DNA of 64,000 bases from Escherichia phage FL20: the sequence record PP400781; one strand, written 5' to 3'. Position numbers and translations under genes: made by a program. Positions 47,122 through 54,910 of the stretch are shown here, one piece after another (within the stretch, counting starts at the first letter, position 1; each line of letters starts with the position of its first letter). Under the pieces are notes generated by a model. It saw only the letters and a list, made by a program, of their open reading frames with translations, was not told the DNA's origin and did no database searches.

Positions 47122-48354
47122 TTATACTGCCATTTGAGCGGTGATTGCTGGATGGCTTTGATAGTTGTGAATTTTAAAGTCTTTCGGAGTCTTTGTCAAT
47201 ACCTCATCTAAAGATTTAAATTCCGGCAACTCAATCGTTGGTTTATCAAACGGAACACGGCTTAACTGTTCCATAACTTGATCAAAATGGTTTTTGTAAA
47301 TGTGAGTATCTCCACCAGAGAAAATCAGTTCTCCTACCTCAAGATCACACATTTTCGCTATGATGTGAGTTAACAGCGCATAGCTGGCGACGTTAAAGGG
47401 CAAGCCTAAAAAGCTGTCTACGCTTCTCTGAAACCACATACAAGACAGTTTACCTTCATTGACGTAGAATTGCACGAAAGGATGACATACACCCAATACA
47501 GCATTATGTGTTCCTTGTACGTTCCATGAGTCAATAATGATCCGGCGATCCGTTGGATTGTTTTTAATTTGTTCAATCACGTTTTGTAACTGGTCTTCCC
47601 AAATCTTCTGGCGATAGACATATTCTTCATCGTCTTTAGTGCTCGATGTGTCTACGTCCATACTAGCAAAGATCGTGGTATCTGGTGCTAAAATATCCCC
47701 ACCCAGATAATCACTATCAAGCAGATAACCGAAATAACCATCATCTACCCATTCCTGGAATCCCCACAAGCAATATGCATCATTAACAAAATTAGATTGA
47801 GTCTTCCAGTGGTCTGCTACTAAGAATAGATTATACTCAGAATCAAACTCTTCATAACGCATACCACGCCAGATAGCACATAAACGGTCTTCTGTTTCAT
47901 TGGTTGGCGTAAAGTCTTCTACCCACGGGTGCTTAAATGTATGTGCATATTTGCTCTTAACGCGCTTAATTTTGATTTCACCGTGTGGATGAATCGGTTT
48001 GCGTCGCCATGCCATACCATACATATTGCCGACATTATAACCATTGAATCGCAAAGGATTCTTTTCTTTCATATCAAGACAGTTGCCGCGCCAAATGTCG
48101 AAGGCTTCTTCGTCAAACTTACCGCGTGTAATTTCCTGTAAGCGACGGCGGTCAAGTGATCCCTCCATAAACCATAGCAATTCACCAATTACAGAGGCTG
48201 TAGCCATCTTTTTAGTGGTCAGTAAGGGGAAACCCTTGCTTAAGTCAATTCGCATTTCTGCACCGAATTTAGAGAGCGTACCTATCCCCGTTCGGTCTTC
48301 ACGAGGCCAGCCATTATCAAGAACATCACGCAACAGTTTCAAATATTCTTTCAT
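47122..48354 (-). CDS. td: thymidylate synthase with ~125-aa insertion
   Basis: ThyA motifs CHPFVQFYV, GKLSC, QRSVDSFLGLPFN, ASYALL; extra residues between the YGxxWR and DQL..V..IKNNPTDRRII regions. Confidence 0.85.
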   Translation of the reverse strand: MKEYLKLLRDVLDNGWPREDRTGIGTLSKFGAEMRIDLSKGFPLLTTKKMATASVIGELLWFMEGSLDRRRLQEITRGKFDEEAFDIWRGNCLDMKEKNPLRFNGYNVGNMYGMAWRRKPIHPHGEIKIKRVKSKYAHTFKHPWVEDFTPTNETEDRLCAIWRGMRYEEFDSEYNLFLVADHWKTQSNFVNDAYCLWGFQEWVDDGYFGYLLDSDYLGGDILAPDTTIFASMDVDTSSTKDDEEYVYRQKIWEDQLQNVIEQIKNNPTDRRIIIDSWNVQGTHNAVLGVCHPFVQFYVNEGKLSCMWFQRSVDSFLGLPFNVASYALLTHIIAKMCDLEVGELIFSGGDTHIYKNHFDQVMEQLSRVPFDKPTIELPEFKSLDEVLTKTPKDFKIHNYQSHPAITAQMAV

Positions 48355-49285: not shown

Positions 49286-49615
49286 TCAAACCAGCTTGAG
49301 ATAGTTTTCGTTAACGTTTTCTTCTGTGATCTCGGTTTTAAACTCATTACCAACATCAGGAGAAACATAATAGCGTTCGGAATAATCACGCCACATTTTC
49401 AGTAGGCTGACACCAACATTAACACCATTTTCCCAGAAACGGAAGATAATTTTATTTGCGGTGTAGCGGTAATCGCTTTGAATCAAGCTGCCATCACCGC
49501 GACGTGATTCATAAACCGTAATACATTCACGGTTAGCGGCTTTAAGACATTCTTCAATAGTGCCGCATGAGATAATTTCGGTTGAGTCGTTTACGATTTG
49601 TTCTACAGTCCACAT
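49286..49615 (-). CDS. hypothetical protein (109 aa)
   Basis: ORF downstream of PeSL; frd.x position. Confidence 0.5.
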   Translation of the reverse strand: MWTVEQIVNDSTEIISCGTIEECLKAANRECITVYESRRGDGSLIQSDYRYTANKIIFRFWENGVNVGVSLLKMWRDYSERYYVSPDVGNEFKTEITEENVNENYLKLV

Positions 49616-49674
49616 AATATAATCCTCTCTTTGTTTCGATGTGTGTATTATACATTACCACATCAGCATGTCAA
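49616..49674 (-). promoter_or_regulatory. PeSL-like early promoter cassette
   Basis: TTGACA / 16 nt / TATAAT / leader CACACATCGAAACAAAGAGAGGATT. Confidence 0.6.
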
Positions 49675-49701
49675 CACCTTTTTCATAAAATTTTAGTCAA
49701 T

Positions 49702-49726
49702 AAAAAAGCCTCCCCGAAGGAAGGCT
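49702..49726 (-). terminator. rho-independent terminator after gene 32
   Basis: Minus-strand hairpin AGCCTTCC-TTCG-GGGAGGCT followed by 6 U. Confidence 0.7.
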
Positions 49727-49736
49727 TTAAAATTCA

Positions 49737-50738
49737 TTACATCCCTAACAGAGCGTCAAGATCATCCAGATCAGAAGCGGAGGAAGTACCGCCACCCAGA
49801 TCCAGCGATGCCATCAGGTCATCAGCGGAAGAATCTAACGCCGTGCTAGCTGCGTTAATACCAACTACAGTGCTAGCTGCGTTAATACCAACTACAGTGC
49901 TAGCTGCGTTAATACCAGAATCGAATGCATTCATCTGTGCGTCAAAATCGTCAAGCTGGCTGTTAATCGCTGCCGCAGCACTGGAAGCCGCAGCACCAGC
50001 TACCATAGAAACGCCCATAGTTTTCTTAAATTTTGTTTCCAGTTCATCGAACGGTTTAAACTGGCTAGGCGCTACAATCTCACTCAGATCAACCATGTTT
50101 TCCATCAGATATTTCTGATATGCTTCGTCTTCAATTTTCGGAAGCTGTGATTGCTGCATGAAACGAGAATCATCATAGTTCTGGTGTTTATCAACCTTCT
50201 TAGCTTTCAGGAGGAAGTTAGCACCAGAGAACACACAAGTTACATCGACCGGAACTTCGCCCATATCGGTATTCACGTTCACCATTGCAACGATCTTATC
50301 ATAAATTTTCTGACCGAAGCGGAATTTGAATACCTTACCTTCATTTTCTGGTGCTTGAGGATCTTTCAGTACCAGAATATTTGCGTAGTAAGACGCTTTA
50401 CGCTTAATCAGTTGCCATTCGGTTTTATCGGTATTGTACAGGTCTTTTTCGTTAATATATTTGCACACAGGGCAAGAATCAAAATCACCGTGGGTGCTGG
50501 AGCAGTTTTCCCAATACCATTTGCCATTAACTTTGAAGGAATGGTTTACCAGTTTCACAATCGGCAGACCGTCTTCTGTCTTAGACGGCAGGAAGCGAAT
50601 CAGGGCTTCACCGTTACCTGCTGCATCAGTCTTAATCTTCCACTCTTTTGGATCTTCTTTGGAGAAACCGTTGCCACCTTTCAGTGCGGCCAGTTGAGCT
50701 TGCAGTTTGGAGCTATCTTGACGACGAAACATGTTCAT
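49737..50738 (-). CDS. 32: single-stranded DNA-binding protein gp32
   Basis: N-terminal KxKx-like basic region, [13 protein letters not shown], zinc ligands [16 protein letters not shown]; acidic C-terminal domain. Confidence 0.9.
49843..49916. repeat. 27-bp tandem repeat (about 2.7 copies) in gene 32 C-terminal domain
   Basis: GTGCTAGCTGCGTTAATACCAACTACA repeated; encodes GINAASTVV x2-3. Confidence 0.85.
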
Positions 50739-50798
50739 AATTATACCTCTTTATACATTAACTATTGATTAATTTACGTTTTATACTATATCAGATAC

Positions 50799-51395
50799 TT
50801 AATTGCTTGTCAATACTTTATCAATTATATCTAACAGTTTTGGCTTTCTATTTTCAAATTCTAACATCTCTTCGGGAGAAATGTCAACTACTTCTGTTTT
50901 GTTGAAAAAGTTTGGGTCTATAGCATCAGCAACAAAGTTTCTCGCAAGTGCTGCCGCTTTCTCATGAACATATATTCCCAAATATATCAACTTCTTTCTT
51001 TCGACCTGAATATTGGCAACATATTTACCATCTCGTTTATAAAGACTAACACCGATATATTCAGACGATCGACCTTTCTGTTTACCCATATTTCTTGAGT
51101 TTTGTTGCTCGTTCGCATCTCTCAAGTTTTCAATCCGATTATCTGTTATAATTCGGTTAACATGGTCAACGTATTTTGGCATGTATCCATGATGCATAAA
51201 GAAAATTATTCTATGCTCTTTATGATGTTTACCATCGATACACACCAATCTGTATCCATGACTAGGATTAACTCCACCCGCTCTAGATCCGACTTTATGC
51301 TTTCTGTTTGTCGATATCTTGCGAATCAGCTTACCGTTATCATATTTAAAGAGTTCATGACAACGAGCATACAATTCAGGATCATATGTTTTCAC
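50799..51395 (-). CDS. HNH homing endonuclease with AP2 DNA-binding domain
   Basis: HNH core GYRLVCIDGKHHKEHR...VDHVNRIITDNRIENLR; AP2-like YIGVSLYKRDGKYVANIQ; between 32 and 59 where T4 carries segG. Confidence 0.8.
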   Translation of the reverse strand: MKTYDPELYARCHELFKYDNGKLIRKISTNRKHKVGSRAGGVNPSHGYRLVCIDGKHHKEHRIIFFMHHGYMPKYVDHVNRIITDNRIENLRDANEQQNSRNMGKQKGRSSEYIGVSLYKRDGKYVANIQVERKKLIYLGIYVHEKAAALARNFVADAIDPNFFNKTEVVDISPEEMLEFENRKPKLLDIIDKVLTSN

Positions 51396-52059
51396 CTTTT
51401 AACCTCGATATTTCTTTACACTCTTTAACTACTTTAACAAATAATGCTCTTGCTTTTGCGGCGTCAATAACAAGTAGTTTCTTGTACGCCTTCATTTTAA
51501 CACTATAAGTTTGCCAAATCAAGTCTTTGGCTACCTTGTCGTGTTCGTCGATTATATTTAGAAAGCTATCTAACAACATAAACGACTCAAACGATATAAT
51601 CCGATTTTGCAGTAGTTTAAAGATACCGCTAGTTTCGGTTGCGGGATTATATGTAATTAGCTCTTTAAGAGTAACCCCGCGTTTCTCTGAGAAGTATACA
51701 AGACTTTTAATGTCATCGTCAAATCTTGTTGCTGCATCTGTTATCTTTCCTATGTATTCCATATAAAAGCCGTATGCGTCAACATCAGTGATTTCACCTA
51801 CCCATGCATCGGTATTAGCTACCAGATTGCTTAGGAATAGGAAGTATAATTCTCTTAGATTGTACTTTTCCGCTAATTTTGCGAAATAATACTTATCTCT
51901 GCGTTTATTGAATGCGGCATCAGATAACCGCATCCTCCAATTATATTTTACGCAATCATAACGCCCGTTCATATGAGCTTTCATCATGCAATATAACATA
52001 TACACAGATTTAGCATTAATTCGCATATCTGGATCTGGAGGAAGACGGTTTCTGATCAT
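51382..52059 (-). CDS. 59: helicase loader gp59
   Basis: GKSVY.LY...HMNG.YD..KYNW.MR.SDAA..KRRDKY.F.KL similar to T4 gp59. Confidence 0.9.
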   Translation of the reverse strand: MIRNRLPPDPDMRINAKSVYMLYCMMKAHMNGRYDCVKYNWRMRLSDAAFNKRRDKYYFAKLAEKYNLRELYFLFLSNLVANTDAWVGEITDVDAYGFYMEYIGKITDAATRFDDDIKSLVYFSEKRGVTLKELITYNPATETSGIFKLLQNRIISFESFMLLDSFLNIIDEHDKVAKDLIWQTYSVKMKAYKKLLVIDAAKARALFVKVVKECKEISRLKGENI

Positions 52060-52068
52060 ACATACCCC

Positions 52069-52338
52069 TTAAATATCGAGAGTGTTGGTCGGTTCGTCGA
52101 TCACTCCCTTCCTGAGCGTTCTATTTACTATACATTCTTGTGTGATCTTGTCAATAATGGACACCGGAATATATTTCTGATAGTGACCATATTCTATAGA
52201 GTTTTCCTCTACAAACTGAGTTGTCGCTTCAAGATAAGTCAATCCCTCTTCAACAACCAGTTTTTCGATTGCAAGACCGTTTGCTGTTTTATTCGCGGCT
52301 TTTACCGCATGTTCATTAAGCATTGAACACCCGATCAT
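52069..52338 (-). CDS. 33: late transcription accessory protein gp33
   Basis: YLEATT.F.EENSI similar to T4 gp33; synteny 59-33-dsbA. Confidence 0.7.
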   Translation of the reverse strand: MIGCSMLNEHAVKAANKTANGLAIEKLVVEEGLTYLEATTQFVEENSIEYGHYQKYIPVSIIDKITQECIVNRTLRKGVIDEPTNTLDI

Positions 52339-52591
52339 AGAGTTCTACTGCTTCATCGCGTTCTGCTTCGAAGGTTTCGCGCTGTTGCTGGTGATACAGT
52401 TTAAACAGAATGCCCCACATTTTACCATCTACGCCTAATTCTTCTTTAGCACGCTGTTTGATCTCTTTGATCTTATCGCCATATGCTTCTTGAATGGTTT
52501 TCTGATCACTGGCTTCTTTAATCAGTTGTGCCAGGGTATTTCCGTGCACTGCTTCGTCAAATACTACTTTTTCTTTTTTCTGTTCAGTCAT
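52316..52591 (-). CDS. dsbA: dsDNA-binding protein DsbA
   Basis: FDEA.HG..LA..IKEASD, ELGVDGKM, FEAE..E.VELYD.VF match T4 DsbA. Confidence 0.75.
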   Translation of the reverse strand: MTEQKKEKVVFDEAVHGNTLAQLIKEASDQKTIQEAYGDKIKEIKQRAKEELGVDGKMWGILFKLYHQQQRETFEAERDEAVELYDRVFNA

Positions 52592-52595
52592 AATA

Positions 52596-53192
52596 TTAAC
52601 CCTCTTTCGTCATTAATTGAAAACCACGTTCAGCTTTTGAAATTTCGCTAGGACTTAAATCGTCACCAACATATTCTAGCATCATTTCTCGGATAATGTC
52701 AAGTGCTTTTTCATCACCTGATTTTAACTCGAACTCAAGTTCATAGTGAGCATCTCCCATGACTTCGCCGACTTTGCAATAATAGAAAGTGTCTTTGCAC
52801 ATTTCCACTATAGCACCCTCAAGGTCAAGTGTCAATGACTTGAGGTATGTCATTACTTGCAACAAAGGAACTATAAGGTCGGAGTTTACGCCTAGACTAT
52901 CAACATAGTGATAGAAATCATCCATTGTTGAAAAAGTAATTTCTTCTCGGTTGAATAGTCCAGATTCACCATCACCTATTTTGATCATGATCAATGATCT
53001 ATTAACGTCAAGTCGAGCATAAATTCCTTTTCGACGCAGTGCATGATCTTCGGTATCATAATAAAATTCGTGTTTTAGAGTGTTAGCATGATCTACGATA
53101 TTGTACCCGTCATACATTGCCGCCCACAAATCACAGATGGTTTCGACGCCAATTTGTGAGTGTACATAGTATTTTAATTCAAGTTCTTTCAT
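52596..53192 (-). CDS. CYTH-like (triphosphate tunnel metalloenzyme family) protein
   Basis: N-terminal ELELKYYV (ExExK), YYDTEDHALRRKGIYARLD, C-terminal HYELEFELK; not present between dsbA and rnh in T4. Confidence 0.55.
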   Translation of the reverse strand: MKELELKYYVHSQIGVETICDLWAAMYDGYNIVDHANTLKHEFYYDTEDHALRRKGIYARLDVNRSLIMIKIGDGESGLFNREEITFSTMDDFYHYVDSLGVNSDLIVPLLQVMTYLKSLTLDLEGAIVEMCKDTFYYCKVGEVMGDAHYELEFELKSGDEKALDIIREMMLEYVGDDLSPSEISKAERGFQLMTKEG

Positions 53193-53202
53193 GTGTCAAC
53201 CC

Positions 53203-54150
53203 TTAGAACTCACCAATTTTCTGTAACATTTTAACTAACGCATTTGTTACAAAATAGTTATAAATTTTACCGCGTGGTGCTGGTTTAGATTTTTCCCATG
53301 CTAACAAAATTTCATATTCGATGTTATCGGGAATAAATTCAAAATCAATAAGTTCGCGGTTTTCGTCAAAGCGTCGTGCTTCTTCCTCTGTCATCAAAGA
53401 CTTTGGATCTTCGGCATCGAAAATTTGCTCTAACCATTTGGTTGCAATTGGTTTAGCTCGTTCTCCTTCCAGTCGTGAGATAATGAAATCACTACGGCAC
53501 TTGATCGAAGCTACACCGTCTTTTGCGTCACCCTTAACACATTTTACCATAAGGTCTTTGTAAGGGCTACCATATTTGCATTTCTTCCATGCTTTCTGTA
53601 CTGGCGCCCACTGTTTCACATTTTTGTATTTGTGCAACTGTGTGTAGTCACCATCGCCGGAGTTGATTAGCACCTGGCGACCTTCTACAGAAAACTTTTT
53701 AGTTAATACAGCGATTATGTCATCTGCTTCAACTTTGTCAACCTTAATAACGTGATAAGGCATGTTCTCTTTAAACTCTTCGGTGATCTTATTGATCGCA
53801 GCAAAGATCATCTCCCAATCACGCGGATCTGCGTCTCGTTTTTCCTTACGGTTGCGTTTATAGTAAGGGGCGATATCACGTCGCCAGTAACCTTTGCTTG
53901 AATCAAAAGCAAGTACCGTAATAGGGTATTGCTCTTTGAATTTTGTCATATTATAACGCATGGTGTCAAGAATAAGATGACGGATCATGCCTTCATTAAT
54001 AGGATCTTCCGGTTTAAAGGTATGCGAGATAGTGGCAATCATAAGCTGCGACATATCAATCAAATGCACACCTTCCGGTAGTTTATCTTCTGGATCATCG
54101 AAGAAATCATTAAGTGTAGCGGTCGTTTTTGTAAACGGGTTATACGTCAT
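53203..54150 (-). CDS. rnh: RNase H (5'-3' exonuclease, FEN family)
   Basis: GYWRRD, MPY.V...DK.EADD.IAVL.KKFS.EG, SGDGD.TQLHKY.NVKQW, PRGKIY.YFV match T4 RNase H. Confidence 0.9.
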   Translation of the reverse strand: MTYNPFTKTTATLNDFFDDPEDKLPEGVHLIDMSQLMIATISHTFKPEDPINEGMIRHLILDTMRYNMTKFKEQYPITVLAFDSSKGYWRRDIAPYYKRNRKEKRDADPRDWEMIFAAINKITEEFKENMPYHVIKVDKVEADDIIAVLTKKFSVEGRQVLINSGDGDYTQLHKYKNVKQWAPVQKAWKKCKYGSPYKDLMVKCVKGDAKDGVASIKCRSDFIISRLEGERAKPIATKWLEQIFDAEDPKSLMTEEEARRFDENRELIDFEFIPDNIEYEILLAWEKSKPAPRGKIYNYFVTNALVKMLQKIGEF

Positions 54151-54344: not shown

Positions 54345-54910
54345 TCATCCTCTTTTTGGAAAATTTAAATAAGCATACTCGCCAACTCTTTCATGTGCTG
54401 CACGGTCATAAGCCTTAGCCGCCTCAACTTCTGTCTCAAAGTATCCTAGATGTATATTCTTTCGATTGATAACAATATACGCCTTCCACGGCTTTTTCTT
54501 GCTTGTTGATAATGATACACCTTTATATTTGCTATGACAAGCCTTTTTCTTTGAGACGTTAAACTGATTTTGCTGTTCTGTTGCTTCTCTCATGTTTGAC
54601 GGTCTATTGTTAGTTTTGTCTTGGTCTATGTGATCTATTAGTTCAACCTGAGTACCATACTCTAAAAACCAGACAACTCTATGTACAAATAGATTAAGTT
54701 TATGACCATTGTTATAAAATGTAAAGTATAAATATCCTTCTTTATGGAGACGTTACCCTTACCACATCACCTTTTTTGTATCTGGACCCTTCTTTTCGGA
54801 ATCCAGCAGCTACAGAATCCTTTAAATGGTATAATATTCCATCAACATGATAAAATCTACCTTTTATCGCTTTCTGTGTCTCGATATCCCAAAATTTTGT
54901 TTTTGCCACA
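54345..54910 (-). pseudogene. degraded HNH-AP2 homing endonuclease (paralog of 50799..51395)
   Basis: AP2 part intact from internal Met (YKGVSL...KPWKAYIVINRKNIHLGYF); HNH motif HRVVW...IDHIDQDKTNNRPSN in frame but without start; N-terminal part in another frame. Confidence 0.55.
54727..54734 (+). promoter_or_regulatory. T4-type late promoter TATAAATA
   Basis: Exact TATAAATA 227 nt upstream of gene 34, inside the endonuclease remnant. Confidence 0.35.

Follow-up and report, generated by a model that had tools for sequence, protein, structure and literature searches.

A putative free-standing HNH-AP2 homing endonuclease gene between genes 59 and 32 of Krischvirus phages

We analysed a 64,000-nt stretch of Escherichia phage FL20 (PP400781; the whole stretch is hereafter the window), whose sequence places its host genome in Krischvirus (RB49-like phages, Straboviridae). 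An endonuclease gene lies there between gene 59 and gene 32. Alleles of this junction that carry the gene are called filled, and those without it empty. The features of the locus are as follows:

51382–52059, minus strand: gene 59 (helicase loader), the upstream flank (Pfam matches at 4e-41 and 6.5e-29)
51382–51406, minus strand: remodelled 3′ end of gene 59, encoding SRLKGENI and stop versus SQLKAETNS and stop in empty alleles (11 filled and 9 empty junctions compared)
50799–51395, minus strand: HNH-AP2 endonuclease gene, 198 aa, GTG start, TAA stop (ORF list)
51087–51218, minus strand: predicted HNH (beta-beta-alpha-metal) nuclease core, residues ~60–103, carrying H61, R62, D77, H78, N86, R87, E89, N90, R92 and N102
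50919–51062, minus strand: predicted AP2/ERF-type DNA-binding domain, residues ~112–159, a three-stranded sheet plus helix
50858–50887, minus strand: second sigma-70-like site, TTGACA-18-TAGAAT, in the 3′ part of the endonuclease ORF (consensus scan only)
50805–50876, minus strand: C-terminal helix, residues 174–197, modelled with high pLDDT; its coding DNA carries or abuts gene 32 promoter elements
50785–50813, minus strand: gene 32 promoter, TTGACA-17-TATAGT with TG, the right-hand boundary of the insertion (promoter scan)
49737–50738, minus strand: gene 32 (single-stranded DNA-binding protein), the downstream flank (Pfam gp32, 1.1e-51)
50712–50714, minus strand: codon 9 of gene 32, AGC for Ser where most relatives have the synonymous TCT; a flanking marker

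The ORF list gives the endonuclease frame as 198 codons without interruption, with exactly the coordinates that the preliminary description had assigned to an intact gene. A GAGG Shine–Dalgarno sequence (51406–51403) stands 7 nt 5′ of the GTG start (51395–51393), and the frame overlaps gene 59, whose TGA stop is at 51384–51382, by 14 nt, in agreement with the overlap described earlier. The TAA stop (50801–50799) is separated from the ATG of gene 32 (50738) by 60 nt.

Pfam searches with the protein returned HNH_3 (2.2e-11, residues 61–101), above threshold, and AP2 (7.4e-5, residues 112–153), under the gathering score; the latter shortfall was counted against a homing endonuclease reading. These were the only matches, and no GIY-YIG domain was found at E ≤ 0.01. 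Because the AP2 call was sub-threshold, the identity of this domain was checked independently with a homologue profile and a structure model. A search of 5.8 billion proteins yielded 50 homologues, mostly of ~160 aa. In an alignment of 47 sequences, R62, D77, H78, N86, R87, E89, N90, R92 and N102 were invariant and H61 near-invariant, and the window protein has H61 together with all of the invariant residues. The alignment profile matched solved AP2 domains (WRI1, 1.5e-8; TEM1, 4e-5; also ERF096/AtERF1) as well as the HNH homing endonuclease I-HmuI (1U3E; 1e-7). The AlphaFold2 model (pLDDT 94.5, pTM 0.81) has, in order, an N-terminal helix with beta-hairpins, the HNH core, the AP2 domain and a C-terminal helix; in the alignment, the last of these is restricted to Krischvirus proteins and the ~160-aa homologues outside the genus are without it. 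The protein thus shows the make-up of the HNH-AP2 class, a His-Me-finger HNH nuclease with its catalytic residues intact followed by an AP2/ERF-type domain, and the HNH core and AP2-type domain reported from the first reading are upheld by the Pfam matches, the profile matches and the model. By sequence and predicted fold, an HNH catalytic module that resembles I-HmuI and is intact is joined to an AP2 DNA-binding domain and the C-terminal helix; the protein shares the position of T4 SegG while standing outside the Seg (GIY-YIG) family.

With a 2.4-kb segment as query, 65 phage records matched, nearly all of them Krischvirus, at 96–98% identity; 11 span the whole query with the gene present, and ~50 match both flanks only. 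When gp59 was used as the probe, 58 records with gp59 of ≥95% identity were obtained, so that ~11 filled and ~47 empty records can be counted among ~58 Krischvirus (a count that includes some GenBank/RefSeq duplicates), and carriers make up about one fifth of close relatives. All 11 filled loci were fetched, together with nine empty ones (JSE, RB49, Phi1, phiS, TB34, ELT3 and three IMG/VR contigs); the three contigs were the close loci found in an IMG/VR scan with gp59, and all were empty. Phages with an empty 59/32 junction include RB49, JSE, Phi1 and GEC-3S. Both states occur within single ICTV species: in Krischvirus RB49, kvi and 011D4 carry the gene and RB49 lacks it, and in Krischvirus gec3s, E26 and Makalu_002 carry it and GEC-3S has the empty junction. 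The junction comparison proposed in the preliminary description therefore rules out strict vertical conservation without empty sites, given empty-site alleles in ~47 of ~58 records, and the gene has what is expected of a homing gene in this respect: a presence/absence polymorphism at a fixed site, with clean empty sites.

A second HNH-AP2 element lies in the window at 54345–54909 (minus strand), between rnh (53203–54150) plus a 61-aa ORF and gene 34 (54961 onwards). It is ~40% identical to the protein of the 59/32 element over residues 61–151, is split by a frameshift and now reads NNRPSNMR at the DNRIENLR motif; its sequence is probably that of a decaying copy. This element occurs in 8 of 58 Krischvirus records (PHB13, PTE-Eco09, ELT4, KFS-EC, G37-3, pEJ01 and FL15 among them), and its carriers are largely different from those of the 59/32 element.

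All nine sequenced empty sites have an identical clean junction, ...GAAATATC TCAATTAAAAGCCGAAACAAATAG/TTGACAAGTAAATTT..., in which TTGACA, the −35 hexamer of the promoter for gene 32 (TTGACA-N17-TATAAT), comes directly after the gene 59 stop. Filled alleles carry an insert of ~570 bp exactly between this stop and TTGACA. On the left, the last eight codons of gene 59 have diverged in filled alleles and supply both the GAGG ribosome-binding site and the GTG of the endonuclease gene; the change falls beyond residue 215 (of 225), the last one covered by the Pfam T4_Gp59_C match. On the right, the endonuclease ORF of filled alleles ends inside or just past the −35 hexamer of the gene 32 promoter (50813–50808), which falls within the last endonuclease codons of the window gene. 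The sequence that separates every filled from every empty allele consists of the last eight gene 59 codons plus the insertion, and nothing else. The second sigma-70-like site further inside the ORF, the sequence of which is kept in both endonuclease alleles (see below), is a possible additional promoter for gene 32. At the empty site, an AGCCGA patch is the sole G+C-rich patch (AGGTGA in filled alleles, AACAGA in JSE), and it would be a plausible, if speculative, contact for the AP2 domain. The leader and start region of gene 32 (50739–50784 plus the first codons) has two forms in Krischvirus, an A-type (...AATCAAAAGAAGGAATAGTGAATATGTTTAAACG) and a B-type (...TAGTTAATGTATAAAGAGGTATAATTATGAACATGTTTCGTCG), which segregate independently of the endonuclease gene and could be relevant to translational autoregulation of gp32.

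The slot just downstream of gene 32 (~49616–49736 of the window, where there is no ORF) also varies among relatives: Skers, Cognac, phiS and Phi1 have an ORF of ~390–460 aa annotated as GIY-YIG or ‘endonuclease’, and MIZ4, ELT4 and pEJ01 have shorter ORFs. Together with the 59/32 slot, this gives gene 32 an endonuclease slot on either side in Krischvirus. The C-terminal region of gene 32 (49843–49917) contains 2.8 perfect copies of a 27-nt unit in tandem, translated as GINAASTVV repeats; the number of copies differs among relatives, so that gp32 is 333 aa in the window versus 313–324 aa elsewhere. Further away, td (47122–48354, minus strand) is a thymidylate synthase ORF of 410 aa in which an insertion of ~120 aa, and no intron, splits the Pfam match; the td annotated in JSE is of similar length.

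No terminator was found between gene 59 and the endonuclease ORF, nor anywhere in 49600–52700, and the same interval contains no late promoter TATAAATA; an independent transcription unit for the endonuclease gene was rejected on these grounds. An RNA hairpin of the kind that masks ribosome-binding sites of T4 endonuclease genes was likewise rejected, as the predicted fold is no better than those of shuffled sequences (z = 0.02). The lack of a terminator and late promoter in this interval, the start overlapping gene 59 and the lack of a masking hairpin together indicate expression within the gene 59 message. The arrangement points to an endonuclease gene that is co-transcribed with gene 59 and probably translationally coupled to it, and the gene can be described from its sequence as a promoter-less cassette whose ribosome-binding site and GTG are built into the remodelled gene 59 tail.

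We next compare the diversity of the gene with that of its flanks. Nine genomes carry the same allele as the window, with 0–7 differences in 597 nt, and the window copy is 100% nucleotide-identical to those of G2494 and MIZ4. Among these nine, 10 sites segregate over the 597 nt of the endonuclease gene, which has five haplotypes, versus 32 over 653 nt in gene 59 (Fisher p = 0.0015) and 58 over 675 nt in the bulk of gene 32 (p = 1e-8). All nine are distinct in haplotype for each flanking gene, and the element is carried on three gene 59 haplogroups, each of which is also found in empty-site phages. The element is therefore less diverse than its flanks and sits on unrelated flank haplotypes, as expected of horizontal spread. 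On the gene 59 side, polymorphism associated with the element does not go beyond the junction; on the gene 32 side it extends over ~400 nt and comprises a promoter variant (50784–50805), the codon at 50712–50714 and site 50394. Low diversity of the gene on diverse flanks, combined with short associated tracts, is the pattern expected of recent spread with short co-converted flanks, although general recombination between co-infecting phages could account for part of it.

The AGC codon of gene 32 was considered as a strict mark of target immunity. The AGC/TCT difference was perfect in the first 11 genomes and was then broken by pEJ01, Makalu_002 and Phi1. AGC is present in 9 of 11 filled alleles, the exceptions being pEJ01 and Makalu_002 (intact element, TCT), and it is absent from the eight empty alleles first sequenced and from the other empty records listed, with Phi1 (empty, AGC) as the exception. 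On this distribution, the codon appears to be a linked marker and no strict determinant of immunity.

Two of the filled genomes, E26 and 011D4, carry a second allele that differs from the window type at 96–97 nt and has 85% protein identity to it. Between the two alleles dN/dS is 0.13 and dS 0.73, which shows that the protein has long been under purifying selection; the central region encoding HNH and AP2 is saturated with synonymous change (dS ~1.4) and has a dN/dS of 0.10. The first ~115 nt and the last ~90 nt are nearly identical, and the ends of the gene have probably been homogenized by recombination. The E26-type allele retains the native gene 32 promoter sequence, a point counted against the homing reading. 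Substitutions in the AP2 beta-sheet include V126K and N128C. That the two types are specificity variants for differing 59/32 junctions or gene 32 promoters is, in our estimate, a long shot; if true, it would amount to an arms race between target and enzyme inside one phage genus. In GenBank, the E26 and 011D4 allele is labelled ‘Fis family transcriptional regulator’, a mis-annotation given the intact HNH and AP2 domains, and the gene is already annotated elsewhere as ‘putative HNH (homing) endonuclease’.

We favour, with moderate confidence, the interpretation that a homing endonuclease gene of the free-standing HNH-AP2 kind has entered the space that separates the stop of gene 59 from the promoter of gene 32. 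During mixed infection with an empty-junction phage, the enzyme would be made from the gene 59 transcript and would bind the recipient genome at or near the 59-stop/32-promoter junction through its AP2 domain, with the N-terminal hairpins also taking part. It would then nick or cut the empty allele at or near GAAACAAATAG/TTGACAAG (I-HmuI, its closest solved relative, is a nickase, acting on one strand), and recombination-dependent repair would copy the gene and short flanking tracts from the endonuclease-bearing genome into the recipient. Because the gene 59 tail and the insertion are the sole difference between filled and empty alleles, the most economical target would span the junction between the gene 59 stop and the −35 hexamer, which we regard as the likeliest target on sequence comparison. 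The lack of a strict target-site immunity signature among filled and empty alleles was counted against homing.

Krischvirus genomes are highly mosaic, so ordinary homologous recombination could move the gene without any nuclease. This bears on the improbable case of an intact but immobile passenger, which would have entered once and then been inherited vertically or by ordinary recombination and lost by deletion, its nuclease being inactive or irrelevant. The strong mosaicism of the flanking haplotypes, with frequent general recombination, suits such a history, as does the lack of a strict immunity polymorphism; Phi1, which is empty on a flank otherwise identical to that of the E26-type filled allele, could be an instance of precise loss. 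Yet an inert copy should decay, as that at 54345–54909 did, whereas a dN/dS of 0.13 and the retention of all invariant HNH residues speak for selection on the function of the protein. Diversity significantly below that of both flanks in the same genomes argues for recent spread over old vertical inheritance, and the same clean junction recurs at all nine empty sites sequenced, in place of the assorted scars that deletions would leave.

An active homing enzyme need not cut at the junction. T4 SegG, encoded in the same slot, cleaves within gene 32 (PMC2988022, Table 1), and we give a modest chance to a SegG-like mode in which the Krischvirus enzyme makes a distant cut in gene 32 (around codons 6–12 or further in), the AGC codon and other gene 32 changes being the immunity polymorphisms. 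The associated polymorphisms reach into the gene 32 side only (50784–50805, 50712–50714 and 50394), and the AGC codon, a triple substitution, is found with either allele of the element and on two leader backgrounds. Against this mode stand pEJ01 and Makalu_002, in which an intact element coexists with TCT, and Phi1, with AGC and no element; moreover, the analogy with SegG, to which the protein has no relationship, is positional only. Homing might also be absent altogether if the protein were a domesticated DNA-binding or regulatory factor, its AP2 domain binding at the promoter or leader of gene 32, or else to DNA of the host or of a competitor, and its HNH part vestigial or repurposed, for example in phage exclusion. 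The gene sits directly on the gene 32 promoter, one GenBank record bears the label ‘transcriptional regulator’, and phage AP2 proteins known as CasPRs can silence transcription sequence-specifically (bioRxiv 10.64898/2026.02.23.707548). However, CasPRs pair AP2 with CapR and not HNH, and occur in Bacillota (bioRxiv 10.64898/2026.02.23.707548); retention of every invariant catalytic residue, the lack of the gene in ~80% of sister phages and an architecture that matches the recognized HNH-AP2 class of putative homing genes make a regulator highly improbable.

The preliminary description equated the position of the gene with the segG slot of T4, which is confirmed by the T4 annotation and the literature (PMC2988022; PMC535899): in T4 RefSeq, SegG lies between genes 59 and 32, starting 1 nt past the stop of the former and ending 55 nt short of the latter. 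Edgell et al. review segG as a promoter-less cassette at 32/59 with embedded gene 32 promoters and a target in gene 32 (PMC2988022); its homing has been shown experimentally (PMC2988022; PMC535899), and Borjac-Natour et al. describe a segG frame that runs into the leader sequence of the recipient gene 32 (PMC535899). Both elements therefore occupy the 59/32 slot in the same orientation, start within 1–14 nt of the gene 59 stop, end ~55–60 nt before gene 32, are promoter-less cassettes that contain or overlap promoter elements of gene 32 at their 3′ ends and are patchily distributed among relatives. They differ in that SegG is a GIY-YIG enzyme with another DNA-binding module and no sequence similarity to the HNH protein described here, and in that the homing and gene 32 cleavage site of SegG are experimental, whereas the Krischvirus element is known from sequence. 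Genes 59 and 32 are directly adjacent in RB43, Serratia phage X20, Klebsiella phage KpnM6E1 and Acinetobacter phage AC4. With the slot empty in these four other genera, the empty state looks ancestral and the slot appears to have been invaded at least twice, by different families.

HNH-AP2 putative homing genes have been counted in RB49 (1), JSE (2), RB43 (3) and RB16 (6) by Petrov et al. (PMC2993671, Table 5) and discussed by Nolan et al. (PMC1524935), and related ‘IPA-HNH’ genes of ICP1 were described by Barth et al. (PMC10448857). The element shares with this class (that of Magnani et al. 2004, including RB49ORF040c, the JSE, RB43 and RB16 genes and the ICP1 ‘IPA-HNH’ genes) an N-terminal HNH_3 domain, a C-terminal AP2 domain and a free-standing, patchily distributed gene in a T4-like genome, but differs in its 59/32 locus and in the additional C-terminal helix of ~40 aa. 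Its best relatives outside Krischvirus are ≤49% identical and lie in unrelated contexts; the possibility that the nearest of them occupy a 59/32 slot was rejected on those gene contexts. I-HmuI (Bacillus phage SPO1, PDB 1U3E), by contrast, is encoded in an intron and binds DNA through a helical C-terminal part in place of an AP2 domain. T4 MobE and other mob-type genes resemble the element as free-standing HNH genes that have an essential gene of DNA metabolism on either side and are expressed from the transcription unit that hosts them (PMC2988022), although mob genes are listed in an HNH category apart from HNH-AP2 (PMC2993671, Table 5). Our literature search found no paper on the 59/32 HNH-AP2 element or biochemical study of it, and no evidence of cleavage or homing for the protein or its close relatives. 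In the papers searched, the 59/32 locus is not described for the HNH-AP2 class; the class itself in RB49-like phages, re-use of slots and free-standing homing genes are already documented.

The suggestion that the gene is likely an active mobile element gains support from a near-identical gene on diverse flanks and from purifying selection; on its sequence, it looks mobile, yet ordinary for such phages, and the finding alters no concept. Its interest lies in the apparent independent colonization of one slot beside the essential gene 32 by two unrelated families, GIY-YIG SegG in T4 and HNH-AP2 in Krischvirus. Filled and empty alleles, together with two divergent enzyme alleles, are available in culturable coliphages and would make a convenient HNH-AP2 system for a first biochemical characterization of this class, covering the target, nicking versus double-strand cutting and the role of the AP2 domain.
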